The notes: generated by a model from the sequence alone, not told the origin. DNA of 64,000 nt from an uncultured virus (IMG/VR IMGVR_UViG_3300020558_000001) (IMGVR_UViG_3300020558_000001), one strand, 5' to 3'; counted from the stretch's first letter, positions 8,761-29,422 are shown. A program made the numbers and translations.

Positions 8761-8768
8761 GTTGATGT

Positions 8769-11700: not shown

Positions 11701-14700
11701 TTATATTCATTTATTATTTGTTGAGCTATTGACTTTTTAACATTACCAAGTAATCCTGCTACAAGATTTTGATTAGGGTTTTCTTTAGCAAGTTCCTTTT
11801 CTAATAATGCTTTTTTATCATCACTAATTTTAAGATTATTATTTTTAAGAACTGTATCAATATCAGATTCAGTTTTTACTTCAGGAGTTATTTCAGATTC
11901 CTCATTAAGTATACCACTAATGTTATTTGCAATCTTAGACTTTTCATCAGTTACAGTTCCTTCTTCACCAACTACTTGTTCTTGAATATCCTCTGTAATA
12001 GGTTCACCACTTGCTTGTTGTTTTTCATAATCAGCTCTTTTATTTTCTACCTTAATAGAGTTAGAGTTTTTAAATCTTTCTTCATCAGCAGTTAAAGGTT
12101 TATTCTGTGCAAGTTTTCTTGCAACTAATTCTATCTTAGTTTCTTTAGGGAGATTAGTAAAGGGTATTTCTTTTACAGAATTTTCATCTGCTTTTTTAGT
12201 TTCTTCCTCTATATCTTTATTACTCTTTAATCCTTCTTCTAATTGTGCTTTTTCTGCTAACTCTTTTGTAACTTTTTCTTTATTGTTTTTATTTACAAAA
12301 AATTGCTTTCTAAAATTTTCAAAAGAATCCTTAGTCATTTTATTTTTATAATGATTAAGAATTTTTGAATCTATTTCCTGCATATACTTATCAGTACCTA
12401 ATAATTCTTCTAAGTTACCTTTCATAGATTCATATTCTTGAAGTACCATATTTTGATACTTCAAGTTTTTCTGTAAACCTTTGTCAGTCATCTTAGCATA
12501 AGTTTCATTATGCTGTGCTATTCTTATTTCTGTTGCTTCAAGTTCTTCTTGTAAGTCTAAAAGTTCTTGATAAGGTTTTACACTTTCTTTAATTTGCTGT
12601 ATTTGTTTATCTGCATTTCTACCAGGAGTAGCACTTACATATCCTTTATTTGTAAGTTCTAATTCAAGTTCACCTCTTTCAGTTTTTTCACTTGGAAATA
12701 CTAACTCACCTGTTTCTTCATTTACAGTAGGTTCTCCTACACCTACTGTGTAGTCATAACCTAAATCAAGTTTACCTGCTTGTCTTAAAAGTGCAACTTC
12801 TAATTGAGCTTCATTTCTTTTTTCAGCAATCTTATTTTTTATTTCTTGTGCTAACTTAGCATCTTGTTTTTGATTAGCTCTATTTTTAAATACACTTCTA
12901 CCATTCTCATATTTTAATGAATCATTAAAATCATTTTCCATAGCAATAATTTCTTGTACTGCTACTGCTGCAGCTTGTCTTACTTCAGGTTTTAATGTTG
13001 TATCATCAGCTATTTTTTGCCAATTTTGAATAAGATTTTGAGTAGTGCCTGATTGATAAGCATCATAAGCTTGAACTGCAAGTATTTGTTTACTTTTTTG
13101 TTTAGCTTCTTCAGTTTTACCTTGAGATTCAAGTGCATTTATTTCTCCTAAAATTTTATTTAACTCTTGTGCACTTCTTACAGGAGCAGTAAGTTGTTCT
13201 ACTATATCAGGCATCCCAACAGATGCACCTATTTCATTTTGTTTTTTAATTACTTCTTGTTGTTTATTATAAGCTTCTTTATGGTCTTTAGCACCAAAAG
13301 CTTCTATTCCTATTTTCATTCCTCCACCAACTCCAAATCCTATTAATCCCCCTACAATACTATCCCAAGAAGATAATTTTTTCCATGCATCAGATACAGT
13401 ATATTCTCTACCCTCACCAGCAGCCATACCCATATCCTCAGCTATATTTTCAACTCCCCATTCTTCTACAAATTCTTGACCACCTTCAACTAATGTGCCT
13501 TTAACACTATATGGAGATTTAGAAATTATATTTCTTGAAGTTCTTGGAAGTCCACTAAAAACTCTTGTAAATGCAGATGACATTGAAAGGTTTAAAAGGA
13601 ATGCAGGGGCCATTGCTTGAATACTTACTTCAGCACCTTTACTTGCACTTTTAGTTGCAGATTGATGTAAGTCAGGATTTTCATCAGCAAATTTTTGAAG
13701 ATATTCTTTTTTTGCTTTTAATCCCATTGCTATTGCATCTTCATCACTTTCACCATTTTTAAGTGCATCTTGAATTGCTTTTTCATAAGTTGCATTCATT
13801 GCAGTTTCTAACTGAGGAGATAAATCAAAAAGTTTCTTTTGATATGTTTCATTATACACTCCTTGTGCAATAGAAAACCCTGTAGTTTGAGTCATTAAAA
13901 ATGCTCCACCTATTACATCTAATGCTTTTTTTGTTCCACCTAAATTACTATTTGCAAATGCTGTAGCTCTTACAGCTTGTTGAGCAGCAGTTAATCCTTT
14001 TAATCCACCACGAAAAGCTGATATTGATTGTGAAACTTTAAATGCAGAACCAGGACCTATTATATTTCCTACAATACTACCAGCTATTTGAGGAGCATAA
14101 TTAGCAACTGTATTTATTAAATTTGATTTAGTTTTAACAGTATGATATACTCTATCTAACTCTCTTATTTCAGAAGCTCTTCTTGTAAGCCAGTTACCAA
14201 ACATGTGTTCACCATCTCCAAATATAGTATGATTATCTAAAAACTTAAAAGGACTATTTAACCAATCTGCTGTTTTATTCCAATCTTCTGCATCTTTTTT
14301 AACTTGCATTGTATTCCACATGTTTCCTTGTATATCACGATTAGCATCAAGGCCTCTATAGTCAACATCTGAATATTCACCACTTAAACTTGGTATTCTC
14401 CAATCAGCAGGGTCCATTAATGTTCCTAAATATTCTTCTAATGCAGCAGCAGTATGTGTAAGAAATGAACCTGTCATTTTATACAAAGTATTTCCTAATC
14501 CATCATATTCATTTTCTATTGATTCTTTTCTTAAATTTTCATAAGTTTTTTCAAATTGTTCTTCAAGTGCTTGTTGTGACCAAGAACTTCCAACTAAAAC
14601 TTTAGGAGTTGAAATAGCAGAACTAATGTCAGGACTCTTTGAATATTTATTTATTGCAGCTTGAACATCAATTACTTCTCCATTAATTGTTGCTGTTTTT

Positions 14701-14771
14701 GGTTGATTAACAGGAGTAACATTTACAGGTTTAGTATTTTGATTTACAACTTTATCATCTTCATTTGCCAT
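8769..14771 (-). CDS. Large virion cargo/ejection protein (2000 aa)
   Basis: Long ORF directly upstream of vRNAP; N-terminal Gly/Ala-rich hydrophobic segments and coiled coils; synteny with crAss-like cargo genes. Confidence 0.7.
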   Translation of the reverse strand: MANEDDKVVNQNTKPVNVTPVNQPKTATINGEVIDVQAAINKYSKSPDISSAISTPKVLVGSSWSQQALEEQFEKTYENLRKESIENEYDGLGNTLYKMTGSFLTHTAAALEEYLGTLMDPADWRIPSLSGEYSDVDYRGLDANRDIQGNMWNTMQVKKDAEDWNKTADWLNSPFKFLDNHTIFGDGEHMFGNWLTRRASEIRELDRVYHTVKTKSNLINTVANYAPQIAGSIVGNIIGPGSAFKVSQSISAFRGGLKGLTAAQQAVRATAFANSNLGGTKKALDVIGGAFLMTQTTGFSIAQGVYNETYQKKLFDLSPQLETAMNATYEKAIQDALKNGESDEDAIAMGLKAKKEYLQKFADENPDLHQSATKSASKGAEVSIQAMAPAFLLNLSMSSAFTRVFSGLPRTSRNIISKSPYSVKGTLVEGGQEFVEEWGVENIAEDMGMAAGEGREYTVSDAWKKLSSWDSIVGGLIGFGVGGGMKIGIEAFGAKDHKEAYNKQQEVIKKQNEIGASVGMPDIVEQLTAPVRSAQELNKILGEINALESQGKTEEAKQKSKQILAVQAYDAYQSGTTQNLIQNWQKIADDTTLKPEVRQAAAVAVQEIIAMENDFNDSLKYENGRSVFKNRANQKQDAKLAQEIKNKIAEKRNEAQLEVALLRQAGKLDLGYDYTVGVGEPTVNEETGELVFPSEKTERGELELELTNKGYVSATPGRNADKQIQQIKESVKPYQELLDLQEELEATEIRIAQHNETYAKMTDKGLQKNLKYQNMVLQEYESMKGNLEELLGTDKYMQEIDSKILNHYKNKMTKDSFENFRKQFFVNKNNKEKVTKELAEKAQLEEGLKSNKDIEEETKKADENSVKEIPFTNLPKETKIELVARKLAQNKPLTADEERFKNSNSIKVENKRADYEKQQASGEPITEDIQEQVVGEEGTVTDEKSKIANNISGILNEESEITPEVKTESDIDTVLKNNNLKISDDKKALLEKELAKENPNQNLVAGLLGNVKKSIAQQIINEYKLNQQSVDNNTDVELINFVNDIKQQIENSGNDQLTIDLEVDEQSDELNEEGKKQLELIQRLQANNNSGLDITKNKTIPNRYKFQIPVSNDPKESSDAAVEKESISYDPKEVNSKLSPEARARIKQEVGDYLVALEDELGSEPSFEKFIRDYIVNSNKDQVRGLFNTLILGWELNGMPIDNYQAVFDKVFRSRKEMASSLLQFAEEQNLMEQQAQKQADNLNKEINSSKTPVETASGEMATEVFSLGDTIFRFGYNSTNKGGNFKTIENEDGSLSTILEEYEEEDVDNFLKFKKLLRRDKFNPGTQLNVQVAANNADILIKDRDANGKVKVTPDGKAALISFKDWVVKNVKEKGNDFLKSQAYYDAVPLTIIDNEGDAVSYIHDVSKIETNDKLNAEDKKKQLADLRALRKYIIDTNKKGGTPKIEITAKTGGMIEKFPNNEKKRIRSINKNAVLARAIVSNKQITHMYVSNGNKSFIIPFDEFKKQFKIDDNQFTPELLEQLKYGHTIDVRQWDADSHKILTTDFPKVSEELVDSLMNLFSVSLTGGANKNNLITNLKKLGFSGSNMFFQYTNKFVRTQNPTSLANNKSYIHINDEGTKLRFGVKGGKEFTIENENDLKKYETELRQFLSEQYLNVKNNFNNPDINSSEFKMGLINEDGSIEESSNYNYFEYSMKDAQTDIRLENAGTADKPHFITRFQPNIEFKAVAPPNRNSAEYSSPKTETKEENKQLNNLVASTYTDEQLQKQIPLFEEAGWEFIGSTIEEKVEDAKRLLSENTNESTEFAKQLDDNLKKKLEQKPVQTPTSQESNVEAIAELKRKQQEEIDKITPIKNEKIIVDTGDNLLVELQVITFKDGSIQIATKDTKAKRYNNLSNESIQDYLKFDFELDAKGIIKTELVKDDYTDKESQKIKEAKEKTINERYDAQIAALESQQKTEETQTPLEGFEEFFNIFAESSNVDEAIQKLIDNKTITKDCK

Positions 14772-14785
14772 AATTAAATATATAT

Positions 14786-17275
14786 TTACTTTTTATATAA
14801 TGTTTCAAATAACCCAAGTGCTTCATTTGCAGTTTCAAATTTTCCTATTTCGTTTTTATTATCATCATAAAATACGTATATACCTTTATTATTATTTGCA
14901 TTAGGATAATAAGAAATAAATTTATTATATTGATATTCAAATTTTGGACTTTTAACTGAACTTGCTTTTCTTGTAGCTTCTTGTGTAAAAGCCATCATTT
15001 CTGTTTGAGGTTCAACTTTTTTTAATGTCGATGATACTGTACTACTTTTTAATTGATTTGTATACAAATCAAAACTTACAGATTCTCTCTTTCCTGTTAA
15101 CGGGTTTATTTGACTACCATTAATTGTAACTGCAACAGCATTTTTACCTACTTTATCAAGATTTTCTAAAGCTAATCTATAATTTCCTACATTACCGTTA
15201 AATACTACTTTACCATCAGCTTTAGTTTTAACTTCAAATTGATTAGTTACTGAATTATAGTCATAATCATATTTATCTGTTTCTGTAAAATAGCTACCAA
15301 GTGTAGTTCCTTTAAGTCCAACCATTCCTGTACCCTTACTATTTCTTACAAAAGTTCCAGTAGCAGTTGAACCACCAAATAAAGAAAATATACTTTCTTT
15401 ACCTAAATCTCCTAATGCTTTTTGTACTGCTATTGCATCTTCATTGCTTGCTCCAAAATCTTTTAATTTTTCTCCAGCAGTTTGATAAGTTCCAAATGAT
15501 ATTTTATTAACATTATTTGGGTCATCAACATTTAAATTAACATATTTATTTATAATTGCATCTTTATCTTTTTGTAATTTTTTTATTTTATCAGTTACTT
15601 CAAATAATTTTTTTCCAGTAGGACTATCTATCATTCCAAGACGAGGTTGTTTAGTTACAGGGTCATAGTAGTTAGTTTCTAATCTTTGTTTTTCTGCTAT
15701 TAATTTTGTTAAATCATTATCAATAGCAGTTTGTTGTTGTATGTCATAATAATTTAAATTATCTTTAGCTTGCTCTCTCATTAAGTTTAAAGCATTTTGT
15801 TTATTTCTTAAATTTGTATTAGTAGATTCCCACTCTCGTTTAAAATCATCTACAGATGTCAAATTAGGGTCACCATTAAATCCTTGACTAGCCATAAATT
15901 TTGCTAAACCATTAAAGTCTGGGTCACCTATTTTTTGACCAAGAAGAGTTGGTCTTTCAAAATATTTATTTAATTCAACTCTAATTTTCTTTAATTCTGT
16001 TTCAGATTTACCTTTACCTAAAACTGCAAGTAATTTATTTTTATAATCTAAAGATGAAGTTTCTAATGCATTACGTTGCTCATCAAGTTTACTTTCTGCT
16101 TCTTCTACAGTATTACCTTCAAACATGGTTTCAATAAATTCCCCAGTTGTTTTATCCCAAACAATTGGGTTTTTATAATCTTCTAATGCTTTTGCATTAG
16201 CTAATTCTTGTGCTTTTATAGCAAATGGGTCAGCACCAGTCATTTCATTTCCTGTAGTTATATCATTCTTATCTTTTTTATCAGCAGCAGCTTGAGCTAT
16301 TCTATACAATTTGCCAGGATTTACAAACCTCATTACAGGTTTTTTTGTTTGCTCATTTATTACAGGTTGACCTTTTTCATCTAATACTTGTTCTAATTTA
16401 AGTTGTTTTGTAGCTGGGTCTATTTCTCCAAATTCATTTGTATATAATTTATTAAATGCTTCATTATATAACTTATCAAAATTTTCACCAGTTTCTTCAG
16501 CTCTTGCAGTAGCAGCAACAGTTGCTTTGTGTTGTAAGTTTTGTATAATGGGTTTAATTACATTTTCATCATTTTCCATAGTATTTAAAATACCCATAGT
16601 TAAATCATCTAACTCTAATACATCTGTTTCTTTAGTTATTTTATACCAATAATTTCCTTTTGGTGTAGAATACCAATCTTTTGTTTTTGTTGATTCCCAA
16701 CCATTAGCTGTTTCTTTAGCATATACAGATGGGTCAACATAATCATATAATAATTCAGTACCATAAGGATTAAACTTACCTGTTTCTTTATTAAACTGTG
16801 CACCTTTATTCATAGCATATCTTGCATCATAAGCACCCATTGCATCTTTAACTTGTTGTACATTTAACCTACCATCTTTATCTGTAGCTTCCTTAGTTAC
16901 TTTTTCTTCATAAGCTTTTCTTGTACTATAATTAGTATTATATGCATAGAGTTCTCCTTCAGTTAAATCTTTATAAATCTCTTGACCTAAATCTCTAATA
17001 CCTTTTTGTTCTTTAATTGCAAGTAAAGGATTTTCAAAAATCTTTAAAGAGTGTTCTCTAATCTTTCCTTCAAGTTCTGTTACTCTTGCTTTTCTTTTTG
17101 CTTCATCTTCTTCTAATGCAGCAGTTTTTAACTGTTTTTGTAAATCAGTTAAGTAAGCTTCTTGTCCTTCAATTTGAGCATCAGCACCTTTAATAGCAGT
17201 CATAATTGCTTGCTCAGGTACCTTAAACATGAAATCCATTATTTCAGGTTTAGCTGTTTTATAAAATCTTCCCAT
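14786..17275 (-). CDS. Virion cargo/ejection protein (829 aa)
   Basis: Coiled-coil-rich ORF within the cargo gene cluster. Confidence 0.6.
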   Translation of the reverse strand: MGRFYKTAKPEIMDFMFKVPEQAIMTAIKGADAQIEGQEAYLTDLQKQLKTAALEEDEAKRKARVTELEGKIREHSLKIFENPLLAIKEQKGIRDLGQEIYKDLTEGELYAYNTNYSTRKAYEEKVTKEATDKDGRLNVQQVKDAMGAYDARYAMNKGAQFNKETGKFNPYGTELLYDYVDPSVYAKETANGWESTKTKDWYSTPKGNYWYKITKETDVLELDDLTMGILNTMENDENVIKPIIQNLQHKATVAATARAEETGENFDKLYNEAFNKLYTNEFGEIDPATKQLKLEQVLDEKGQPVINEQTKKPVMRFVNPGKLYRIAQAAADKKDKNDITTGNEMTGADPFAIKAQELANAKALEDYKNPIVWDKTTGEFIETMFEGNTVEEAESKLDEQRNALETSSLDYKNKLLAVLGKGKSETELKKIRVELNKYFERPTLLGQKIGDPDFNGLAKFMASQGFNGDPNLTSVDDFKREWESTNTNLRNKQNALNLMREQAKDNLNYYDIQQQTAIDNDLTKLIAEKQRLETNYYDPVTKQPRLGMIDSPTGKKLFEVTDKIKKLQKDKDAIINKYVNLNVDDPNNVNKISFGTYQTAGEKLKDFGASNEDAIAVQKALGDLGKESIFSLFGGSTATGTFVRNSKGTGMVGLKGTTLGSYFTETDKYDYDYNSVTNQFEVKTKADGKVVFNGNVGNYRLALENLDKVGKNAVAVTINGSQINPLTGKRESVSFDLYTNQLKSSTVSSTLKKVEPQTEMMAFTQEATRKASSVKSPKFEYQYNKFISYYPNANNNKGIYVFYDDNKNEIGKFETANEALGLFETLYKK

Positions 17276-17280
17276 AATTA

Positions 17281-20200
17281 TTATCTTCTTTTAGTTGCAG
17301 CTTTAATAAATGACTTATCAGTTACAGTAGGTATATTTATATCTTTAAATATAGGATTAAAGTAAGGAGTATTTCCTAACCCTAAAGGATTAATTGCAGG
17401 AATCATATTAGAAGTTTTAACTGGTGCAACAGGAACATTAGAAGTAGTAGGATTAACAGGAGTATTAGGAATAACAGGTGCAGTTGTAGTACTTGCTTTT
17501 TCAAGTGCAGCTTTCTTTTCTGCTTCTATTCCTTTTTCTACTATTAACCTGGCTGTTGTTTGGTCAATATCTTCACCATTATGTGTCATTACATATTTAC
17601 CCTTTCTCATTTCTACACCAATACCATACTTAGAAAACATTGGTGACATTTCTAATATCATCTTATTGTATTGTGCTTGATTCATATCTCTACCTTGTTT
17701 CTGCATTAGTTCAGATTGAGATGCAAAGTTTTCACTAAGGTTACTGTAGAAGTTATCAACATCTTGTCTATCAGCTAAATCTCTTTGGTATTCACCTGTC
17801 ATTACTGCTTGGTCTTGTTGATTTTCCATTTGTGCTTTTTGACCTAACAACTGCATCATCTGTTGAGCATAAGCATTGTAAGCTTGGTTCTGTGCTTGGT
17901 TAGCTCCCATATCAGCAGCAATATCCATTGCTCTTAAAGTATTAACACCTCTTGCAGAATTTCTACCTCTTTGTCTTGATGCTTCTTCTCCTAATTTAAT
18001 ATCAGCTAATTGTTTATCTCTATTAATACCAGAGAGTGCTTGTGCTTCTTGCATAGCTCTTAATCCTTCAGCACCAAATTCTCTAAAGAAGTTTTGATTC
18101 TTAGGAGTCATCATTCTATTTAACATAGTAGTTGTAGCAGGTGCAAGTCCACCAAACAATGTACCTGCCATACCCATTAAATCACCACGAGTATAATCTA
18201 AACCTTCATCTGACTTAGTACCTTTTTCTTTTTTAGGTTTACCATCTTTATCAAACAACCCACTAAAGAAATCACCTGTTTGGTCTACTGCTTTATTTAA
18301 AAAGTTCATAAACTTATTAGGTTTCTTAGGGTCTTCTTCAGGTAACATTTTATTACCAATCACTTCATTGTAAAGTGGATTAGGAATCATTCCACCTTTA
18401 GTATTAATGTATGGGTCTTTTGAAAGAGCAATATTTTCAAATGTATTTCCCATTATATTACTCATTACATCATAAGGATTTACACCTGGAGGTTCTGGTT
18501 TAGTTACATCAACACCTACATTTTTTCTAAGGTCTAATGGATTAGTATTAAAATTTGTAAATTGATTAAGTTGTTCTTCTGTTAAATATGGAGGAGTAAT
18601 ATTTGCAACTTTAGTTTTAGAATTTAAAGTATTTACAGATTTTGTTTTAGACATATTATCATCATAAACTACTGTCATTGGATTTCCTTGTTCATCATAT
18701 TCTAAATCTTCCATAACTTGAAAATCTTTTCCATATAGATTTTCAGTAGGAATTAGTTTATTATATTGTTGCTTATTAACTGCATTAGCAAGTGTAGGGG
18801 ATATATAATTTAATAACCCATAAGGAGGAGTACCATTAACAAGTTTACCACCATACATCATCATTCCCATTTGTTGCATCATAGCAGGGTCTTGCATTAA
18901 ACCAGCCATTGCTTGTTCTTGCATCATACCCTGTTGAGCTTGTTGTTGCATTTGTTGTTTCTGATTAGCTTGTTCTTGCATAGCCATATCACTCTGCTCT
19001 TCTAAAGCAGCAGTTTCCTGTTGTCTTTTAAGTGCTTCTTTTATAAACTTATCAGAAGGATTTTTACTAAGTATCTTTTCTAACTTAGCAACATTAGCTT
19101 CTCTTTTAGTTTTTCTATCTGCCATAGTTTTACCATTGACTTTTAATTGTTTAGAATAAACCTTAGTTTGTTCAGGAAGTGCTACTGGTATTCCACCATT
19201 ATCATGTGATGGTCCTTCAAACTCTCCCATTTCACCATTAGGTAGTTCATAAGCTTCTCCTCCCTCTACTTCAACAGGAATGTTTTGAGGTACTTGTCCA
19301 CCTTGTGCATAAGAACCATACATCATTTGTTGCATGTACATTGATGGGTCAATCATGCCACCATAAGCCATAGTAAAACCTGTATTAGGTTTTGTAGGCC
19401 TCATTTCTTGTTCAGGTTCTCTAATAGCTTTAACCATATCAGTTACAGCTTTAGTTGTAAGGTTTACTAAAGCATTAGCACCTACATCAAAAAGCATAGG
19501 TGTTAATCCACCTGCCCACATTTTAGGAAGTTTGTTATTCATATCATCAGTTATTGTACCACCATAAGCTCTTTTACTCAAATTAAGTGATTGAGCATAA
19601 TACTCACTTGGCGAAAGACTTTCCTTTAAAGCATTAATCATTTTTTGTCCTTTTGTTGGTTGATTTTCATCTATCAACTTTATACTTTCATTCTTTTTAA
19701 TCATTTCTTTTGGTAATTTCCAAGGTGTAGTTTTTTGTTTTGCTTTACCTTTAGGAGTATATGTTACTCCTGCTTTAACTTCAAATGGGGATGCTTTATC
19801 TTTTTCTTTTTGAGCTTCACTTAAAGTTTTATAATCAACTCCAGCTTTAACTCCAAAACCATTTCTATTATATCCAACATTAACACCTAATTTATTAGTA
19901 GCAGGATTTTCTTCTGTAGCAAATTGTCTTTCATAATTAGCATCTGCATTAAAGTTTTTACCTCTATATCCAACTTTAGCATCTAAACTTCTGTTTCCAG
20001 TTTCTTCTTCAAGGTCTAAATTTGTTTTGTAATTTACATTAGTTGCAAATTTTTTACCTTTATATCCAAGTCCTGTTCTAACATCAAAGTTTTTATTTTT
20101 ATAATCAACAGCTGCATTAGTAGTGAACCCTTGTTTTTCAGGAACAAAGTTAAGATTAAAATTATAATTAGGGTCAAGTTTATTTCCAGTAAATCCAAGA

Positions 20201-23200
20201 TTACCAGTAAACCCATTTTTAGAATAACCTATTTTAGCATCATGTATAAGTGGGTCTTGATTATCTCTTGATATTGCATAGTTAGCAGTAAGACCATTTC
20301 TATCATAATCTAATAATCCTAAATTAAAATTAGATTTGTTTTTAGCATTATTAGATTTAAGATTATTATTTTTACCTTTTGTAAGAATAGATTTAAAGTC
20401 ATCTTTTTTACCACCTTTATAATTAAAGTTAGTACCTATGCCACCCACATTAAAACCTGCTGTAATATCATAATCATTTTGATTACCAGTAAATCCAAAG
20501 TTACCAGTAACTCCATCTCTATCATAATTTAAACCAGCTTCATAATTATATGGAACATCTTTATTTTTTGTTGCTTTAAAGTTTGCATCAAATCCATTAC
20601 CCTTATATCCTCCACCAAAATCAAAGTTAGGATTTTCTTTATTAAAGTTATAATTGTAATCTCCAGTAAATCCATACTTATCAAATCCTAAATTAAATTT
20701 AGCATTAGGATTATTTTCAGCTGTAGAGTTTGTATAATCAGCACTACCTTTAAATCCAAATCTATCTCTATATCCTAACCTTGCATTAAAGTTTAATTGT
20801 GAATTAGGATTATCACTAGCAAATGTAAAATCTTTAAGAGGAGCTAATTTTCTATCACTAGTTATACTTGTCATTTGATTAAATGGACCTACTTTATACC
20901 CTAGTCCAACATTACTTAAACCAGATGACATTCCTCTTATATTAGGATTAAATCCTGGTTGTCTTAAACTTTGATTTAATCTTTCTTGATATGGATATAC
21001 AGTTCCACCATTATCCATTTGTGCTCTAATCTTTCTTTCTTGCTCTAACATTTTTTTAGTAGGCTTTTTACTAGAACCTTTATTAGCTCTAATATTATCC
21101 CACAATCCTCTTTTAGAATAAGAACCATCTGCTCTTTTAATCATACCACCTGTTCCATACTCATCTCCACTTGTTGTAAAATTATTATTTTGTAATACCG
21201 ATTTTTTCTTTTTCATAGTATTAGTTATTATACCACCATTAGCAGCAGTAGATATAGGAGTATTATTTTGATTACTTACAAAAGAATTAAACATTTTAAT
21301 TACATCTTCTTCTTTAAAAGGAATCATTAAATCTTGTATTTGTGACTTTAATGAATTTTCTTTACTCATACCTTTTAAAGGAGTAAGTTCTAAATTCTTT
21401 TTTAATTCATCATAATGTTTCTTTTCAAATCTTTCATTAACTGGGTCATACATGTTATTATCTAACATCCACTTTCTAACAGCATCTACTCTTGCTTTTA
21501 CTTCAGTAGGTCTTTCATAATATTCTTTGTCATTATAAACTTCTTTAAAATCTTCTGGTAAATTAGCTTCATCTATTGTAAATGGATTATTAAAATACTT
21601 TAAACCTCTACGACCTAATGTAGAAGCATGAGAAAGTTCATGTAATTCTGTAGCTGGTAAATCTTGATTTTCATTTATAAATACAGTATGAGGATTATTT
21701 ACTTTACTCTTATAAGACCTTATATTTTTAGCATAATTTAAAAGACTTTCTGTAAGATTTGGATTATCCATTATAGTAGTATAACCATAATTTTCTATAA
21801 ATTTTTCTTTACTTTTTTCCAATTCTTGTAGTTGAGCATTCATTTTATTTTTTTCATCCTCAGAAAATTGAGGATAATAAACACCTTCCCAAGCTCCTTT
21901 GTCAGAATTTTCATAATCACCAATCTTAACAGTATTTAAATTATTATTTATAAACTGTCTGTAATCATCAGCTTCAGTAGATATATTTGTTATAGGTTTA
22001 TTTGTCATCATAGCATACCTTTCATTAAACAAAGGACTGTTTGTCATTTGTTTTAAAAAGTCTAATGATGTAGTATTTGTTGGTTCTATTGGTCCACCTG
22101 TTTGATATTTAGGAAGTTTCTTTTTCGTATTAGTTATTTTTCCTCCCATAGCTTTTTGTTCAGGTGCAGATTCTTCTTGTGACATTAACTGAGAACCAAT
22201 TGTACCAGCAGTTGCAACTCCAGTTGTTGCTGGTAATGCTTCATTTAACCATTTTAAAAAGTTTGGTTTATTTAATCTTTTAATAAGTTCAGGTGTAAAT
22301 ATATAATCATCAGTTTTTATAAATTTATCAAGTGTAGTTTCGTCTATTTGTTCAAATGGACTTTTTATAAATCCTTTATCTACCATTAATTTTTTTAAAT
22401 CTCTTGATAACCAAGCTTCTTGTTCTACTGGATCTAATCTGTATTTAGTATAATTATCTCTAATATTAGTTTCATCAAAATTTTGAGAAATTGCTTCTTT
22501 GTATTTTTCTGGAAATTGTGCTCTCCATTTTTTTGTAAAATGTTCTTTATGTTTTAATTCATGTGGTAATGCATTATCTACTCTTACTTGTGTTATATTT
22601 AAACCAGGAGTAAATCTACCTAATACCCTACTTTGTCTTTGAGCTTCGTTAAATTCTTCAGTTGTTAAATCATCAATACTCTTCTTTAAGTTTTTTAAAT
22701 ATTCATCACCAAAATCTACATTAGTAAATATATTTTTATAATATTCAGGAGTTTGAGTATAATTAGACATTCTAGTAAAAAGACCAGCTGCATCTTCAAA
22801 CTCGTTCCTTTGTTGAAATGGCCCAAATAATAAAGAAGGTCTATAATCATTATTTCTCAAAGGTCTTCTTGTTCTTGTTTCTCGCAATGTTAATTGTCTT
22901 GCAAAAGGATTAAAATCAGTTGTTTGTTGTTGGTCAGTTAAAGTTAAATTACTATTAGTAGGTCTTTCTTGTATTGATGTATCACCATATTTAACATCAA
23001 GCTCTTTAGCTTTTTGCGCATATCTTGGGTCTGATGTTACATTTTTAACATAATCTATTCCTGTTTTATTTTTAAACTTATTTTTAAATAAGTTTGGTAA
23101 AACATCTTGTAATTTATTTAATTGTTTAGCATACTTAGATGTTTTTGTAAATGCTTTTCCTGTTAAAATATCTAAAGGTACATCTATACCCATTTGTACT

Positions 23201-23691
23201 AAAGGATTATCAGAAACCAATGCACCAGGAGTCATTTGGTCATTAGTAGGTAACCATTTTTTATCTTCAGATGTTAGTTGACCTTCTAACCCCATATCTT
23301 TCATTGCTCTTGTTAAATTAGGCAATGCAGAATAATAATCATTTCTGCCTGATAAAGCTTCTCCCATTAATGCTAATGGAGTATTCATTACTTCACCAGT
23401 ATAAGCTAATGCAGTACCTACTCCTTGAACTGCTCCTTTTACAAATTTACCTCTACCTTTTCTAACTTTATCTTGAGCTTTACCTACTCTTTGCTTTTTA
23501 TAAAATTCATCCCAAAGTTTATTCATACTTTTTGGAACACTTACCCATTCTTGGTCAGCTTCACTCCAAACTATATCACCATCTTCAAACTTATCTTCAT
23601 ACATTTGAGCATAATTAGGAGAGTTGACATCGTAAATTTTACTGTCAACTTGTACCTGATTTTTTTTAAGTTTTTTCTTTTGCTTACTCAT
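17281..23691 (-). CDS. Multidomain cargo protein (2136 aa) with two zincin modules, a beta-barrel-like region and a VEVEGGE/GPSHDNGG module
   Basis: HELKH (22549-22563), HELSH (21628-21642), amphipathic beta-strand array ~19750-20920, VEVEGGE...GPSHDNGGIPV; lies directly downstream of the muzzle gene. Confidence 0.7.
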   Translation of the reverse strand: MSKQKKKLKKNQVQVDSKIYDVNSPNYAQMYEDKFEDGDIVWSEADQEWVSVPKSMNKLWDEFYKKQRVGKAQDKVRKGRGKFVKGAVQGVGTALAYTGEVMNTPLALMGEALSGRNDYYSALPNLTRAMKDMGLEGQLTSEDKKWLPTNDQMTPGALVSDNPLVQMGIDVPLDILTGKAFTKTSKYAKQLNKLQDVLPNLFKNKFKNKTGIDYVKNVTSDPRYAQKAKELDVKYGDTSIQERPTNSNLTLTDQQQTTDFNPFARQLTLRETRTRRPLRNNDYRPSLLFGPFQQRNEFEDAAGLFTRMSNYTQTPEYYKNIFTNVDFGDEYLKNLKKSIDDLTTEEFNEAQRQSRVLGRFTPGLNITQVRVDNALPHELKHKEHFTKKWRAQFPEKYKEAISQNFDETNIRDNYTKYRLDPVEQEAWLSRDLKKLMVDKGFIKSPFEQIDETTLDKFIKTDDYIFTPELIKRLNKPNFLKWLNEALPATTGVATAGTIGSQLMSQEESAPEQKAMGGKITNTKKKLPKYQTGGPIEPTNTTSLDFLKQMTNSPLFNERYAMMTNKPITNISTEADDYRQFINNNLNTVKIGDYENSDKGAWEGVYYPQFSEDEKNKMNAQLQELEKSKEKFIENYGYTTIMDNPNLTESLLNYAKNIRSYKSKVNNPHTVFINENQDLPATELHELSHASTLGRRGLKYFNNPFTIDEANLPEDFKEVYNDKEYYERPTEVKARVDAVRKWMLDNNMYDPVNERFEKKHYDELKKNLELTPLKGMSKENSLKSQIQDLMIPFKEEDVIKMFNSFVSNQNNTPISTAANGGIITNTMKKKKSVLQNNNFTTSGDEYGTGGMIKRADGSYSKRGLWDNIRANKGSSKKPTKKMLEQERKIRAQMDNGGTVYPYQERLNQSLRQPGFNPNIRGMSSGLSNVGLGYKVGPFNQMTSITSDRKLAPLKDFTFASDNPNSQLNFNARLGYRDRFGFKGSADYTNSTAENNPNAKFNLGFDKYGFTGDYNYNFNKENPNFDFGGGYKGNGFDANFKATKNKDVPYNYEAGLNYDRDGVTGNFGFTGNQNDYDITAGFNVGGIGTNFNYKGGKKDDFKSILTKGKNNNLKSNNAKNKSNFNLGLLDYDRNGLTANYAISRDNQDPLIHDAKIGYSKNGFTGNLGFTGNKLDPNYNFNLNFVPEKQGFTTNAAVDYKNKNFDVRTGLGYKGKKFATNVNYKTNLDLEEETGNRSLDAKVGYRGKNFNADANYERQFATEENPATNKLGVNVGYNRNGFGVKAGVDYKTLSEAQKEKDKASPFEVKAGVTYTPKGKAKQKTTPWKLPKEMIKKNESIKLIDENQPTKGQKMINALKESLSPSEYYAQSLNLSKRAYGGTITDDMNNKLPKMWAGGLTPMLFDVGANALVNLTTKAVTDMVKAIREPEQEMRPTKPNTGFTMAYGGMIDPSMYMQQMMYGSYAQGGQVPQNIPVEVEGGEAYELPNGEMGEFEGPSHDNGGIPVALPEQTKVYSKQLKVNGKTMADRKTKREANVAKLEKILSKNPSDKFIKEALKRQQETAALEEQSDMAMQEQANQKQQMQQQAQQGMMQEQAMAGLMQDPAMMQQMGMMMYGGKLVNGTPPYGLLNYISPTLANAVNKQQYNKLIPTENLYGKDFQVMEDLEYDEQGNPMTVVYDDNMSKTKSVNTLNSKTKVANITPPYLTEEQLNQFTNFNTNPLDLRKNVGVDVTKPEPPGVNPYDVMSNIMGNTFENIALSKDPYINTKGGMIPNPLYNEVIGNKMLPEEDPKKPNKFMNFLNKAVDQTGDFFSGLFDKDGKPKKEKGTKSDEGLDYTRGDLMGMAGTLFGGLAPATTTMLNRMMTPKNQNFFREFGAEGLRAMQEAQALSGINRDKQLADIKLGEEASRQRGRNSARGVNTLRAMDIAADMGANQAQNQAYNAYAQQMMQLLGQKAQMENQQDQAVMTGEYQRDLADRQDVDNFYSNLSENFASQSELMQKQGRDMNQAQYNKMILEMSPMFSKYGIGVEMRKGKYVMTHNGEDIDQTTARLIVEKGIEAEKKAALEKASTTTAPVIPNTPVNPTTSNVPVAPVKTSNMIPAINPLGLGNTPYFNPIFKDINIPTVTDKSFIKAATKRR

Positions 23692-26600
23692 TATCTTATA
23701 GAATTTTGTTCAGTTTCAATAATAAAGTTAGTAGTTAGTTCTACATCCTCAAAGTTAGTGAATCTTAATCTCATTACTAAATATTTATCTCTAAAGTTTT
23801 CTTGGTCATACCAATCTTTGTTTACATTAATTGCAGCAGGATTAATAACTTTATCAATAGGATATTGAGAAGATATAGCTGACCAGTCTTTAGTAAACAT
23901 AGGAATTGTATAATTAATTCTTACATCTCTAAAATCATTTATTCTCCAATCTCTTTCAGCTCTATCTATTACAACTGATGTAGCATTGTTAGTAGTTTGA
24001 TTCTCATAAAAATCTGCTGGGTTAGCTTGTAAATTTTTAGCAATCAATTGTACTTCACCAGATATTTGTCTGTTATTATAAACTGTTAATCTGTTAAATG
24101 TAACATTTCTTTCTTCATAATAATCTTGATTTACTGCATCATATTTTTTAGCAATAGTTTGTAACATAATATCTTCCCATAGTCTTGTAGTTATAGGATT
24201 AGATACTGATACTGTTTCAATTATATGTGAGTAAAGAGTATCATAATACTTTTGATATAATCCTTGAATATTATGTTCCCACTCTGTTTCTCCATCAGCT
24301 GAGTAAAAAGTATTTTGGTCTTGAGAATAGAATAGTGGAAGATAAGAATGAAATGATACCCAAGTTTTAGTTAGCAATGAAAATGAAATAGTAAATGATT
24401 TATTTTCAAAAAATGTAGCATCATTAAAAATAATGTTTGTAAAATCTTCTTTAAATCCATAATACACAAAGTTATTAGTGTCTATATTAAAATATACTGA
24501 ACCAGGAATTAATCCTACATAACCAGCATCAATACTTATTATTTGAAAATTATTTACATAGTTAGGTCTTAATAAATAATCTCTTTTAGTAAAGATAACT
24601 CTTTGATGTCTTGGGTCAAATACTGAATGAATACCTATACCATTAGGATTATTAGGATTGTCAGCATTAGGGAATACTTCACCTGTAAGGTCAAAGAATT
24701 GTTGAGCAAGATATGGTTTAAGATATTCTTGAAACCAATTATACATACCTTCACCACTTATTTTTGCTAACCCTCCTTCTGCACCACTAACAAGATATAA
24801 ACTCTTTTCATATTCAGAAGCATAAAATATACCAAGAGGTGATTTAAGAATACTCCATTTATGATTAGTACCTGCACTACCCATATCTGAATCTACCATT
24901 TTTCTTGGAGGTATTGAGAAGTATTCTCCAGTACCTATAAATGTAACTACTTCATTAACAATACTTTGTTGTACATTTTGAGGTAGTAACCATAAACACT
25001 CTTCAGTAAATACAAACAATGAATTATTCTTTCTTACTAATCCTGTAATGCCACCATGCTCTGCTTCTATATCTCTATAATTGTTAGCTAAAAATACTCT
25101 ATAGTTATCACTTAGTTCTTCTTGAAAACTTGTTTCAGAATAATATACTCTATCAGGAAAAGACTCTAAACAATCTGAACAACAATCATAAAGAGATGGT
25201 AATGGAAAATAAACTTTTTGTTTATCCATTCTACTAAAGTCAACATTATAGTGATATATCTCTGGACAACAACTTGACTTGGCTAAATATTTCTTTTTAT
25301 CTTCATCAAAGAATAACCATCTATCTCTAAAGTATTCTTCTATATCTTGTGTATAATTATAATAACTACCACAAACATTATTTTCTACTTGTCTTAAAGC
25401 AGTATTAATTTCTGATTCTACATATACTCCAACAAGATGTTCATTAGCATAAAATAAACAATTACCAAGACTAACTGACATGCTATCTAATTCAGGGTCT
25501 TGACATAATACATCTAATTCACTTTGTTTAAATGCATTCCAAAATGCAGCTATTTTTGTTGCAGTTACTCCTACAGCAGCACCACCTATTGCAAGAACTA
25601 AAACCCACACAGGTGCTCCTGCACCCACTGTTACTATAGTTATTACTAATGCTGCAACAATAGCAAGTGCTGTAATTATTTCATCAAAGAATCCTGAAAA
25701 TGATTCTCTTACTAATGAGTTAGATAAATTAAAATGTGTAATAGATACATCACCTGCATATAATCCAAAATCATCAGTTTTTGAATTTGCTTTCAACATA
25801 CAATTATGCATCTTATAATACTTAATAGAGTTTAATTGACAATGAACATTTCTATCTACTCTCATAGTTATGTAAGAAATATTCCTTTCATCTAATCCTT
25901 GATTAGGAGGAAACAATTGTCCAGTCTTAATCATTTGTACTCTATTAGACCAAGATAAATTATACATTCTTCTACCTGGTTCATAAGTATCATCATAAGA
26001 TAAAGCATCCATTGCAAGTATTTTTAACCTGCAAAGATTTCTACCTGTAAATACACCATTAGTTACTCCACTATAATTTTGAACTCTAACTTCTATTCCA
26101 CTATCCCAATCACCTATAAATGTTCCTACTCCATCATATCTTTCATAATAAAATGTACTATTTGTATATTGAAATTCATTTTCTAATTTAATATATTCAG
26201 GAACAAGTATATCTTTTTTATATAAAAATTTTGGATTAAATATATAACCATGCCCTCCACCATCTCCATTAAGTCGAGTAAAATATGTAAATGTAGTATA
26301 GTTATAAGAATTAGTATTCTGACTTCTAGCTTTTCCTCCTATACCTGCATCAAGTATAGTTCTATTAAAATCATCTCTTTCAGCTCTAACAAAATAATGA
26401 CCTACAATATCAGGATGTGGATATTCTACATTAGTAAATTTAATTCCTAATAGTTTAAGTGTAGTGTTATTTACATAATTTTGATATGCAAAATTAATAC
26501 TATAAGTAACAGTAAATTCAGCACCCCAACTAGTAATCATTGTACCACTAAATGCTACATTACTAAAAATATCATTAGGGTCATTTCCTGGTTCTGTAAC

Positions 26601-28421
26601 TACTGTAAAAGTATATGATGATTCATATAAATCTGATTCTGAAATACTTGTAGTTACAGGAGTTTGTGTAGTTGGAGGAGGTATATTATAATCATAAGTA
26701 GTAGTTAAATCAATAGCATTTCCAGGGTCAGGCCACACAAACCCATCATTTAAAGTAACTGTAACTGATAAATTATAAAATGAATTTATTGAGTTATCAT
26801 TATCTACATGGTGTTCTAAAGTACGAGAAGGAAACCTATGATGTCTTACAGGTGTACTAACAAGTGGATTACCACATATATCTTCTCCCCAATAATCTCC
26901 TGATGCACAAGAATCTATATTTTCATAAACACTTCCAAAACATTCCCAATATGCCATTTGTCCTTCAACACCAGGATTAGTTGCAATAGCAGTTTCATAT
27001 ACTCTCCATTTTTCTACTTTAGGAATTAATCCATCATTATACTGAGTTTCTTGACTTAATGGTACAATATGTTCTATATTATGAGTCCAAGTATTAATTA
27101 AACTATCATCATTTGTAGGTTCACAATTACCTGTATTCCAATTCCATCTTTGATTTTTAGGTGGTCCAGGAATATGATAAACAGGAGATTCAAATCCATC
27201 AGCAAATACATAAACTATACCCATAGCATATACTTCACCACCCATAAATCCAATAACTTCATTAGGAGATATAGGATTTTTAGGATTACCTACTTCACTA
27301 ATATCTGTATCACCTATTTCTTTTACAATATAACGAGAATGTATTTTAGATGCATATTGTTGAAATCCACAAAAGTTTACTTGTTTACCTTTTGTATTAG
27401 CAAGTAATAATTTATTTTCTAATTGCTCTAAGTGTCTAGCAAGTTCAATATCAATTTTACCTGGTTTAATTTCCTCAACAGATATTTCTGTATAACCATT
27501 TATTCCTCCATCATATATAAATGTAGTTTGGTCAATAGGTATATTAGGAGATACTAAACACTTGTTTACTAATCCTGTAAATTGAGTTGCATGAATTGCA
27601 GCAATTCTATAATAAGTAAAGTCAGGGTCTAAATTAGATAAATTAATTTGTATTGATTTATTTGTTTTAGCTGTAACACCTCCTACTCCATCATATTCTA
27701 ATTGAGATGAACCATTGATATTATTATAAGTTGAAAAAATATTATCATGGTAAATATTAACAGGTCTTGAAGTTATAATCCAATTAGTAGGATTACCACT
27801 TTCATTAAGTAGTTGAATAGCAAAATTATATGAACCTGCTTCTAATTGACCACCAGTATTTAAAACTTCTATTTCAGAAAAACAAGGAATTTGAAATGGT
27901 TGAATTAAATTAAATTTAACACAATTCCATTTTTCACCTACAAATGGGCCAATAGGATTATCTAACCAAGCTAAATATGCATCACTATAATAATCTTCTA
28001 ATTTATTAAGATTAACTTGTCTTACAGAATTTAACCCATCTGTAAAATAAATTACTTTTTCACAACCTCTTCTTATTCTATAAGTTGCATCTATCTGATA
28101 TTCAATACTAAATCCTAAACATTCAGAATTTACTATTTGAATGTACTCACAATTCTTTACTGTACCTATTTCACTATTAGTTCCATTAGTACTAAAGATA
28201 ACTATCTCATTATCTTTGGTATAAACTTTACCTATTCTATAATATCCATTAGGAAGAGTATAACATTCCTCATTTCCTTTTTCATTAGATAACATTGTTC
28301 TGTTACCTTCACTTGTTTCATTGACAGCATTAAGTGCATATCTATATGATTCTTTAGGTTGGTCAACAGGATTAACATCCTGCATCATACCTTTATGTGG
28401 TCTATTTACATTGTTATCCAT
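23691..28421 (-). CDS. Tail stabilization/muzzle protein (P22 gp10-like, crAss type)
   Basis: 1576 aa; N-terminus KGMMQDVNPVDQPKESYRYALNAV and C-terminal TISFSLLTKTWVSFHSYLP resemble crAss-like stabilization proteins; position between ring and cargo genes. Confidence 0.8.
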   Translation of the reverse strand: MDNNVNRPHKGMMQDVNPVDQPKESYRYALNAVNETSEGNRTMLSNEKGNEECYTLPNGYYRIGKVYTKDNEIVIFSTNGTNSEIGTVKNCEYIQIVNSECLGFSIEYQIDATYRIRRGCEKVIYFTDGLNSVRQVNLNKLEDYYSDAYLAWLDNPIGPFVGEKWNCVKFNLIQPFQIPCFSEIEVLNTGGQLEAGSYNFAIQLLNESGNPTNWIITSRPVNIYHDNIFSTYNNINGSSQLEYDGVGGVTAKTNKSIQINLSNLDPDFTYYRIAAIHATQFTGLVNKCLVSPNIPIDQTTFIYDGGINGYTEISVEEIKPGKIDIELARHLEQLENKLLLANTKGKQVNFCGFQQYASKIHSRYIVKEIGDTDISEVGNPKNPISPNEVIGFMGGEVYAMGIVYVFADGFESPVYHIPGPPKNQRWNWNTGNCEPTNDDSLINTWTHNIEHIVPLSQETQYNDGLIPKVEKWRVYETAIATNPGVEGQMAYWECFGSVYENIDSCASGDYWGEDICGNPLVSTPVRHHRFPSRTLEHHVDNDNSINSFYNLSVTVTLNDGFVWPDPGNAIDLTTTYDYNIPPPTTQTPVTTSISESDLYESSYTFTVVTEPGNDPNDIFSNVAFSGTMITSWGAEFTVTYSINFAYQNYVNNTTLKLLGIKFTNVEYPHPDIVGHYFVRAERDDFNRTILDAGIGGKARSQNTNSYNYTTFTYFTRLNGDGGGHGYIFNPKFLYKKDILVPEYIKLENEFQYTNSTFYYERYDGVGTFIGDWDSGIEVRVQNYSGVTNGVFTGRNLCRLKILAMDALSYDDTYEPGRRMYNLSWSNRVQMIKTGQLFPPNQGLDERNISYITMRVDRNVHCQLNSIKYYKMHNCMLKANSKTDDFGLYAGDVSITHFNLSNSLVRESFSGFFDEIITALAIVAALVITIVTVGAGAPVWVLVLAIGGAAVGVTATKIAAFWNAFKQSELDVLCQDPELDSMSVSLGNCLFYANEHLVGVYVESEINTALRQVENNVCGSYYNYTQDIEEYFRDRWLFFDEDKKKYLAKSSCCPEIYHYNVDFSRMDKQKVYFPLPSLYDCCSDCLESFPDRVYYSETSFQEELSDNYRVFLANNYRDIEAEHGGITGLVRKNNSLFVFTEECLWLLPQNVQQSIVNEVVTFIGTGEYFSIPPRKMVDSDMGSAGTNHKWSILKSPLGIFYASEYEKSLYLVSGAEGGLAKISGEGMYNWFQEYLKPYLAQQFFDLTGEVFPNADNPNNPNGIGIHSVFDPRHQRVIFTKRDYLLRPNYVNNFQIISIDAGYVGLIPGSVYFNIDTNNFVYYGFKEDFTNIIFNDATFFENKSFTISFSLLTKTWVSFHSYLPLFYSQDQNTFYSADGETEWEHNIQGLYQKYYDTLYSHIIETVSVSNPITTRLWEDIMLQTIAKKYDAVNQDYYEERNVTFNRLTVYNNRQISGEVQLIAKNLQANPADFYENQTTNNATSVVIDRAERDWRINDFRDVRINYTIPMFTKDWSAISSQYPIDKVINPAAINVNKDWYDQENFRDKYLVMRLRFTNFEDVELTTNFIIETEQNSIR

Positions 28422-29422
28422 TAGATATAAGAATTATAATATCCTCTAAAATAGTTTCTAAAGTCAGGGTCATTAAATTTACGAGATTCTGGTCTAGACA
28501 TTTTACCAAAAAATCCATAGTACCTATTCATACGAGGTAACATATATTGTCTTTGTTCAAGAATGTTCTGCCATTGGTCAACACCTTTAGGCATCATAGC
28601 TCTATTACGAGCTTGTTTACAATACCAATGCCAATCCTGTTCTGCTTTTTGTAATTTACCTACTGACCCATCTCTATTGGCATAAAACTCTCTTTCCATT
28701 AACTTCATTACTACATATTTAGTAATAGCAGTAGTGTAAGCATAATGGTCAGGTATCATTGGGTAACCTTGGTCATCAACAACTTGTCTTACATGAGATA
28801 ATACTATCTGACCTTTCTCAAAAGAAAATCTAATAGTATCTCCATTTATAATAGTGTATTCATCAAATACTCCTGAACCTGCATTATATAATTTATCCTG
28901 GTCAGGATTAGAACATACAAGTGAATTAAAAAATGTATGGTTAGCAAGTCTTATAACTGAAAAACATTTGTTGTACAAATAAGATGAAGCATAATATCCT
29001 ACCTCATCTCTTAAATCAAAATATGGTCTATAATATGCTAAGTCATATTCTTGTAATGGTTTTCCATCACAATCAATAGGTACAGGTATAGCTGCAGGAA
29101 GTGGTGCTAAAGATGAAACTTCTTCAGATAAGTTAAGTACATCAGATGGACAAAGACCACATTCTCTTATATCATCCCAACATATATTTCTTATTACCTG
29201 TACAATAGCATGAAGTCCATTAGGAAGAGAAGCCTGATGATTTCTTACTTCTATAAATGCAACTGCTTCTTCATAAAGAGTAATGGCACCAATAGCTTCT
29301 AAAGCTTCAGCAGTCCATTCAATAACATCTGATTCATTTATATTTTCTAATGAACCAAAATCTCTTCTAAGTTTACCAAGTATTCTATTTACAGATACAT
29401 AGGGTGTAACTTCATTACTCAT
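28421..29422 (-). CDS. Tail tubular/ring protein
   Basis: 333 aa; DVIEWTAEAL...DDQGYPMIPD...WHWYCKQA pattern; adjacent to muzzle gene. Confidence 0.7.
   Translation of the reverse strand: MSNEVTPYVSVNRILGKLRRDFGSLENINESDVIEWTAEALEAIGAITLYEEAVAFIEVRNHQASLPNGLHAIVQVIRNICWDDIRECGLCPSDVLNLSEEVSSLAPLPAAIPVPIDCDGKPLQEYDLAYYRPYFDLRDEVGYYASSYLYNKCFSVIRLANHTFFNSLVCSNPDQDKLYNAGSGVFDEYTIINGDTIRFSFEKGQIVLSHVRQVVDDQGYPMIPDHYAYTTAITKYVVMKLMEREFYANRDGSVGKLQKAEQDWHWYCKQARNRAMMPKGVDQWQNILEQRQYMLPRMNRYYGFFGKMSRPESRKFNDPDFRNYFRGYYNSYI

Follow-up and report, generated by a model that had tools for sequence, protein, structure and literature searches.

The stretch of DNA analysed here (the window, 64,000 nucleotides of the uncultured virus IMGVR_UViG_3300020558_000001) is part of the genome of a crAss-like phage with a GC content of ~29–30%. 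The assignment is based on the genes of the muzzle, ring, major capsid protein (MCP), portal and TerL, which Pfam and PHROGs recognize in the window. The open reading frame (ORF) directly downstream of the muzzle gene encodes a giant modular protein of 2136 amino acids (aa), P0001 (Table 1). Inside this protein, between two linkers (aa ~897–1377), lies a beta-rich domain of about 400 residues, which carries the sequence hallmarks of an outer-membrane beta-barrel. We tentatively interpret it as a barrel that would be ejected from the virion and insert into a membrane.

A first-pass annotation had placed an outer-membrane beta-barrel-like domain, made of tandem amphipathic hairpins, at 19750–20920. 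This segment corresponds to aa 925–1314 of the (−)-strand ORF at 17281–23691, all six peptides quoted in the annotation are found in the translation, and no other ORF of at least 80 aa overlaps the segment on either strand. The hairpin description is borne out by the family of eight carriers (P0001 and seven distinct homologues; alignments A1 and A2), all of which display the residue alternation, and by AlphaFold2 (AF2) models of the P0001 domain (model 1, computed from an 8-sequence alignment) and of the domain of its homologue P0005 (model 2, 9 sequences). When the domain is cut between the strand pairs of the AF2 model, 12 hairpin units are obtained, with a mean pairwise identity of 25% and one common pattern, x-Φ-x-Φ-G-[YF], a 3–4-residue turn ending in G, and [FVIL]-x-x-x-Φ-x-[YF]. 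The domain is an old internal hairpin amplification. At the DNA level, it contains no tandem repeat except a 36-nucleotide low-complexity array inside its variable K/N-rich loop. In this array, at 20339–20374, a 15-nucleotide unit is repeated 2.4 times, which suggests that the loop changes size by replication slippage.

The two faces of the predicted strands differ greatly in composition. One face is hydrophobic, with 90 of its 119 positions in the AF2 strands occupied by aliphatic or aromatic residues (F24 Y20 V14 A14 L12 I6) and 11 by glycine; its six charged residues are confined to the first two face positions of a strand or to the last one. The opposite, polar face (N35 G22 D16 K14 T13) has six aliphatic residues (A3, M2, I1) in 120 positions. 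The strands are 8–13 residues long, and their hydrophobic face typically reads, in strands of 9–12 residues, as an aromatic residue, two or three small aliphatic ones and another aromatic residue (FVAVY, LFALY, FTVY). The domain of P0005, which is 48% identical, has the same organization in its own model: 87 of 120 positions on one face are hydrophobic and six charged, and 2 of 117 on the other face are hydrophobic. The pattern holds down to this level of identity in all eight carriers (72–76% versus 5–9% hydrophobic), and 60 of the 76 variable columns of the hydrophobic face remain hydrophobic, G or T. The dyad periodicity, expressed as lag-2 minus lag-1 autocorrelation, is 0.637 compared to a shuffle mean of 0.00 ± 0.07 (z = 8.9), a value reached by none of 5000 shuffles, and the best 391-aa segment of the remaining four giant ORFs in the window, the beta-rich muzzle included, does not exceed 0.14.

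The connections between the strands are asymmetric. Turns within the hairpins are 2–6 residues long (mostly NG, DG, GG and GP, also YG), and the opposite side carries long loops of 20, 29, 15 and 8 residues. P0005, P0008 and P0009 lack the 29-residue K/N-rich loop and, along with it, exactly two strands, which gives 24 strands versus 26. Both the dyad repeat, with its hydrophobic and polar faces and with aromatic residues at both interfaces, and the asymmetry of short turns and long loops are features of transmembrane barrels.

The AF2 models are all-beta meanders in which each strand pairs with its next neighbor in antiparallel fashion. Model 1 consists of 25 strands and the disordered K/N-rich loop, with a predicted local distance difference test (pLDDT) of 57.3 and a predicted template modeling score (pTM) of 0.41. 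Model 2 consists of 24 long strands and a mini-hairpin, with a pLDDT of 71.4 and a pTM of 0.53 (four of the five models have a pLDDT of at least 66). The hairpin alignment and model 2 point to a 26th strand in the P0001 domain, in a low-pLDDT stretch where DSSP does not call it; the number of strands would then be even, with the first strand modeled at low confidence. In a Foldseek search of the PDB, models 1 and 2 gave 53 and 22 matches, respectively, at E ≤ 1e-3. Among the PDB matches listed, all are membrane beta-barrels (including LptD, VDAC, Tom40, OmpU/C/F, PorB, Occ channels and SlpA) except for ApoB100, at rank 50 of model 2. In further fold searches, membrane barrels make up 48 (model 1) and 49 (model 2) of the best 50 rows, and the non-barrel rows are lipovitellin and a soluble single-layer TCP10 sheet. 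The viral fold library BFVD gave a single, uninformative match at E ≤ 1e-3. The first-pass annotation had named a solenoid, or a sheet devoid of a hydrophobic belt, as folds that would speak against a barrel. Neither was predicted, as the models are antiparallel meanders with a continuous hydrophobic face that match almost only membrane barrels.

P0001 and its relatives are mosaics, in which homologous blocks occur in differing orders and combinations. The junctions between modules carry conserved linkers ending in GG, with the pattern A-x-GG followed by (K/T/I/M)I, which are often doubled (AxGG-ITN-KKLPK-xxGG). Such linkers punctuate the modules of P0001 (aa 513–535, 816–851, 892–896, 1375–1395, 1442–1465, 1612–1615 and 1764–1767) and those of all seven homologues, and could be protease sites or recombination joints. 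The beta-domain is bounded by two of them, MDNGG and AYGG...WAGG (Table 1). The two xxGG motifs that had been described as bracketing the domain thus exist, but they lie outside the segment first assigned to it, 29 aa upstream and ~60 aa downstream. A small module at aa 849–885 (21040–21150, −), MIKRADGSYSKRGLWDNIRANKGSSKKPTKKM, recurs elsewhere: at the extreme N-terminus of P0003 and in the middle of P0004 and P0007. Module shuffling is also seen in P0008, where a copy of the P0001 N-terminal module (38% identity) is found near the C-terminal end (aa 1893–2075), followed by a C-terminal DUF5872 (PF19197, 7.5e-14; aa 2217–2308).

In seven of the eight carriers, an HExxH module is located upstream of the beta-domain. 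Pfam and PDB-sequence searches with the other modules of P0001, the HExxH modules included, gave no match. For the second HExxH module, ESM Atlas leads to clusters with the ‘large polyvalent protein-associated’ domains LPD23 and LPD1 (score 0.90, a lead only), and this module is possibly a zincin-like peptidase or a polyvalent-protein domain. The beta-domain may be released by cleavage at its flanking GG linkers, perhaps through the HExxH modules that P0001 itself carries.

The muzzle shares 38% identity with that of the Flavobacterium psychrophilum phages of the FpV4 group, which are the nearest cultured relatives. In FpV4, the gene after the muzzle encodes gp30 (598 aa), which aligns with aa 1391–2024 of P0001 (E 3e-60), so that the first ~1390 aa of P0001, the beta-domain included, are a lineage-specific N-terminal extension. 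It is via this C-terminal core that the whole of P0001 matches phage records, and among 50,697 of them the matches are limited to 29 records of Flavobacterium psychrophilum phages. Residues 1802–2041 match phrog_15413.

The position of P0001 after the muzzle corresponds to that of gp45 after the muzzle gp44 in phage crAss001. The designation of P0001 as a phage cargo protein, as in the first-pass annotation, is based on this gene position and on the homology to FpV4 gp30. According to PMC10172136, crAss001 gp45 is cargo protein C1, located partly in the tail barrel and partly on the portal, and its N-terminus is in the tail. The authors of that study anticipate that gp45 exits before the rest and helps to build a transmembrane channel. 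By analogy with gp45, P0001 is probably carried in the virion. The core contains a block that is invariant between P0001 and FpV4 gp30, VEVEGxE...G.SH(D/E)(N/Q)GG...T(K)VYS...GKTMA.RK (aa 1465–1530; ~19100–19300, −). A similar motif string can be seen by eye in the portal-bound region of crAss001 gp45 (aa 425–552), for which hhalign gives no support (probability 1%). Further along the core, a Q/M-rich low-complexity stretch, QEQANQKQQMQQQAQQGMMQEQAMAGLMQDPAMMQQMGMMMYGG (aa 1560–1615; ~18850–19010, −), ends in a GG linker and is kept in close homologues.

The muzzle gene is followed by four giant ORFs of 2136 (P0001), 829, 2000 and at least 2920 aa, the last three of which occupy window positions 1–17275 on the (−) strand, downstream of P0001. 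The 829-aa and 2000-aa ORFs have no match in Pfam or PHROGs. The ORF of at least 2920 aa matches phrog_16227 ‘virion structural protein’ (2.5e-258), and occupies the slot where crassviruses encode virion RNA polymerase subunits. Genes of the major head protein, portal and large terminase are found further along the same (−) strand as the muzzle (PHROGs), and replication genes are on the strand opposite to the structural block.

Table 1. Features of the P0001 locus, in window coordinates
Feature	Coordinates	Strand	Remarks
Tail ring protein 1 gene	28421..29422	−	PF24228 CrAss_Ring_1, 9e-53 (Pfam)
Muzzle protein gene	23691..28421	−	PF25731 crAss_MUZ 2.3e-57 (Pfam); phrog_15100 (PHROGs)
P0001, giant modular protein, 2136 aa	17281..23691	−	ORF directly downstream of the muzzle gene, gp45/cargo-C1 slot
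First HExxH motif, HELKH, aa 377–381	22549..22563	−	Module missing from P0006
HExxH module (LHELSH; motif aa 684–688, 21628–21642), between two GG linkers	21238..22086	−	
Upstream linker MDNGG, aa 892–896, immediately before the domain	21004..21018	−	
Conserved beta-rich domain P0002, aa 900–1330, as aligned in 8 family members	19702..20994	−	
Predicted strand array, aa 917–1311	19759..20943	−	~26 antiparallel strands, 12 hairpin repeats; one hydrophobic and one polar face
Variable K/N-rich loop, aa 1095–1123	20323..20409	−	Disordered (pLDDT 25–31), conservation 0.29
Downstream double-GG linker AYGGTITDDMNNKLPKMWAGG, aa 1375–1395, at the junction with the FpV4-gp30-like core	19507..19569	−	
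C-terminal core common to P0001 and FpV4 gp30, aa 1391–2024	17620..19521	−	Alignment E 3e-60

The domain is very rare. All its carriers are giant modular phage proteins, in which it is flanked by conserved xGG linkers and, in most cases, preceded by an HExxH module. A phmmer search of 1.84 billion representatives returned three proteins, all of them giant and phage-type, and word-seeded searches of 5.8 billion clusters returned six, for a total of seven distinct homologues. With profile A2, no protein of 216–755 aa was found in the 5.8 billion clusters, and the same six were found at 756–2155 aa; no stand-alone or cellular form of the domain was found in these clusters or among the 1.84 billion representatives. 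Scans at the DNA level add three viral contigs and five metagenome contigs, and neither tblastn with the domain nor megablast with the gene gave a match in the 50,697 phage records. Flanking genes were inspected in the window and in contigs L008, L003 and L010, leaving aside L001, L002, L006, L007 and L009. The carrier gene follows the ring and muzzle genes in the window, in L008 (muzzle identified by phrog_15100) and in L003 (by ORF sizes and order only). P0005, P0008 and P0009 have a second architecture, which lacks the FpV4-like core and in which the domain is found at aa ~220, directly after an HExxH module of ~215 aa. In L010, the only flanked contig of this kind, no muzzle was seen upstream. 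None of the families, structures or open-access papers found here describes the domain, and searches of an open-access library listed no paper in which an ejection protein of a crassvirus or podovirus has a beta-barrel module.

Our preferred reading, which we hold with somewhat less than even confidence, is that the domain is an ejected, membrane-inserting monomeric beta-barrel of 24–26 strands. The domain would be an accessory module of the first ejection/cargo protein of the phage and would be kept unfolded or partly folded in the virion. P0001 would be expelled N-terminus first through the tail, as argued for gp45, and the beta-domain, possibly freed at the GG linkers, would fold into the outer membrane of a Bacteroidota host with 24–26 strands. 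Its F/Y/V/A/L face would contact lipid and its N/G/D/K/T face would line a water-filled lumen. Such a barrel would serve to anchor the tail tip and, by opening the outer membrane, to let through the subsequent cargo and DNA. The Cα radius expected from standard barrel geometry for 24–26 strands is 21–26 Å, which is wider than double-stranded DNA. The first-pass proposal of a transmembrane pore is supported in part, by the sequence hallmarks of the domain, and we infer closure, membrane insertion and conduction.

The domain lacks the attributes of outer-membrane proteins (OMPs) that use the Sec/BAM pathway. The absence of a signal peptide noted in the first-pass annotation agrees with the N-terminus of P0001, MSKQKKKLKKNQVQVDSK, which is K/Q-rich and has no hydrophobic core (by direct reading rather than by a predictor); a C-terminal beta-signal is absent from the domain, which is internal, and no OMP profile of Pfam matches it. 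The most elaborate form of our proposal, a Sec/BAM-independent barrel that is inserted from the outside, serves as a DNA-sized porthole and is cut out at the GG linkers by the protein's own HExxH modules, appears unlikely as a complete scenario.

Several observations weigh against an ejected barrel. The alignments behind the models are shallow (8–9 sequences), the pTM values are 0.41–0.53 and the pLDDT of the first strand is ~42–51. The fold matches have TM-scores of 0.17–0.33 and root-mean-square deviations of 14–32 Å, mostly 15–30 Å, with sub-sheets of ~100–160 residues alone superposing, at 4–8 Å, so that barrel closure is an extrapolation, and they also include the TCP10 sheet and the lipid-binding belts of ApoB100 and lipovitellin. 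The sequence itself is unrelated to any OMP family: Pfam gives no significant match for the whole of P0001 and no family for the domain alone even at E ≤ 10, phmmer and profile searches of the PDB with the domain give no match, and ESM Atlas gives sub-threshold leads only (best 0.89, a porin cluster at 0.86). The long loops other than the K/N-rich loop are highly conserved (0.79–0.95), unlike the surface loops of OMPs. If the weak first strand of the models is real, both termini would be on the short-turn side, in the classical OMP layout, and entry from the outside would then require passage of the long, charged loops through the bilayer. The layout of pore-forming toxins, in which short turns and termini are on opposite sides, was considered and dropped, as counting this strand puts the termini on the short-turn side. 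With regard to the virion, FpV4 gp30 is annotated as hypothetical only, with no virion label, and no homology was detected between the P0001 core and crAss001 gp45 (BLASTP E 0.5; hhalign probability 1.1%), which leaves synteny as the sole argument for the packaging of P0001. Finally, both FpV4 gp30 and crAss001 gp45 lack the beta-domain, which is thus not required for ejection in these relatives.

The hydrophobic face could, alternatively, be buried by self-association or by another virion protein. The domain would then be a soluble array of beta-hairpin repeats, similar to the TCP10/G-box or MORN repeats, and would act as a structural spacer, a ruler or a cargo packing element in the capsid or tail. 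We regard such an array as an unlikely explanation. A face that is 72–76% hydrophobic and 4–5% charged over ~120 positions in all eight carriers is unlike the exposed single-layer sheets. Soluble folds account for one or two of the best 50 rows in each search, the MORN matches in BFVD have probabilities of 0.12–0.28, and Pfam finds neither MORN nor any other repeat at E 10. The lipid-binding proteins among the fold matches suggest another possibility, namely that the array is an open amphipathic belt or groove that binds lipid or lipopolysaccharide and forms no pore, as in ApoB100, lipovitellin, the N-terminal domain of LptD or AsmA-like proteins. A belt of this type would make the outer membrane weaker, attach to it or cover acyl chains, and the channel would be supplied by another component. 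This we consider rather improbable, as belts are rare among the rows listed in three of the fold searches (one of 50, ApoB100 alone, and none of 50, respectively). Furthermore, three features suit a wall that spans the bilayer better than a surface belt: strands of a regular 9–12 residues, a hydrophobic face with an aromatic residue at either end, and, on one side, tight turns of two residues. The number of strands is even, and exactly two of them are removed by the indel found in the homologues.

The first-pass annotation had also offered a superinfection-exclusion protein or a receptor mimic, which would reside in the outer membrane of the infected cell. Phage-encoded OMPs that are exported by the host exist, e.g. 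Lom of phage lambda, and proteins annotated as OMPs occur in viral collections, but in the present case only the barrel-like pattern speaks for such a role. The domain lies within a protein of 2136 aa that, by reading, has no signal peptide, and an internal domain cannot have a C-terminal beta-signal. The gene belongs to the structural-cargo block, and the sequence collections contain no stand-alone form (of 216–755 aa in the 5.8 billion clusters, or among the 1.84 billion representatives). We therefore find exclusion or mimicry very hard to credit.

Breaching of the outer membrane by short-tailed phages is known from only a few models, which use small helical proteins. A monomeric beta-barrel delivered by the virion would, if confirmed, be a different solution, and nature would thereby offer an example of a very large barrel that inserts without BAM. 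As a compact scaffold built of repeats, with a lumen of ~2–4 nm, it would also be attractive for nanopore engineering. The domain is a concrete candidate for the channel-forming role that has so far only been postulated for crassvirus cargo proteins, and interest in it would rise considerably if closure and conductance were demonstrated. Even as an open belt, it would be a conserved lipid-type amphipathic beta-array of an unknown family, found in eight protein clusters among billions.

The closest structural parallels are the large monomeric barrels of the outer membrane: LptD and MtrB with 26 strands, the PapC/FimD ushers with 24, and the TonB-dependent transporters and SusC with 22. These barrels are the top structural matches of the domain, which resembles them in its predicted meander of 24–26 strands, two faces, aromatic ends and turn/loop asymmetry. 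Unlike them, it has no detectable sequence homology, signal peptide, terminal beta-signal or recognized plug, it is internal to a phage protein, its long loops are conserved rather than variable, and its closure is a proposal. Beta-pore-forming toxins contribute one or two hairpins per subunit to an oligomeric barrel. These toxins and the FHA-2 region of CdiA are likewise cases in which a water-borne chain is proposed to build beta-structure in a target membrane from the outside, without the Sec machinery of the target. Here, however, a single chain would supply all the strands.

The relationship to crAss001 gp45 is one of gene position, immediately after the muzzle, and of the short motifs ‘YGG’ and ‘EGG...SH(D/E)(E/N)’, which can be seen by eye in both proteins. 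At 842 aa, gp45 has no such beta-domain and, according to PMC10172136, has a predicted transmembrane helix instead. The overall make-up of P0001 is reminiscent of polyvalent proteins, giant multi-module proteins that are delivered with DNA and in which interspersed zincin-like peptidases are proposed to release the domains autoproteolytically (Iyer et al. 2017, PMC5512222). P0001 is likewise giant and multi-modular, with interspersed HExxH motifs and with modules shuffled among its homologues. It differs in that it matches no LPD family of Pfam, and the terms ‘beta-barrel’ and ‘outer membrane’ have zero occurrences each in PMC5512222.

Functionally, the counterparts of the domain would be found in podovirus ejectosomes. 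According to PMC10172136 and PMC13434306, T7 gp14 and N4 gp52 are carried inside the virion, are the first to be ejected, and have been proposed or shown to make the channel across the outer membrane. T7 gp14 is presumed to insert via a transmembrane helix (PMC10172136). N4 gp52 is a small protein with a predicted elongated, alpha-helical fold, and N4 gp51 is for the most part alpha-helical (PMC13434306). The P0001 domain, in contrast, is a single beta-domain of ~400 aa with 24–26 predicted strands inside a 2136-aa protein. Being built differently from N4 gp52 and T7 gp14, it would accomplish the same task with a different structure.

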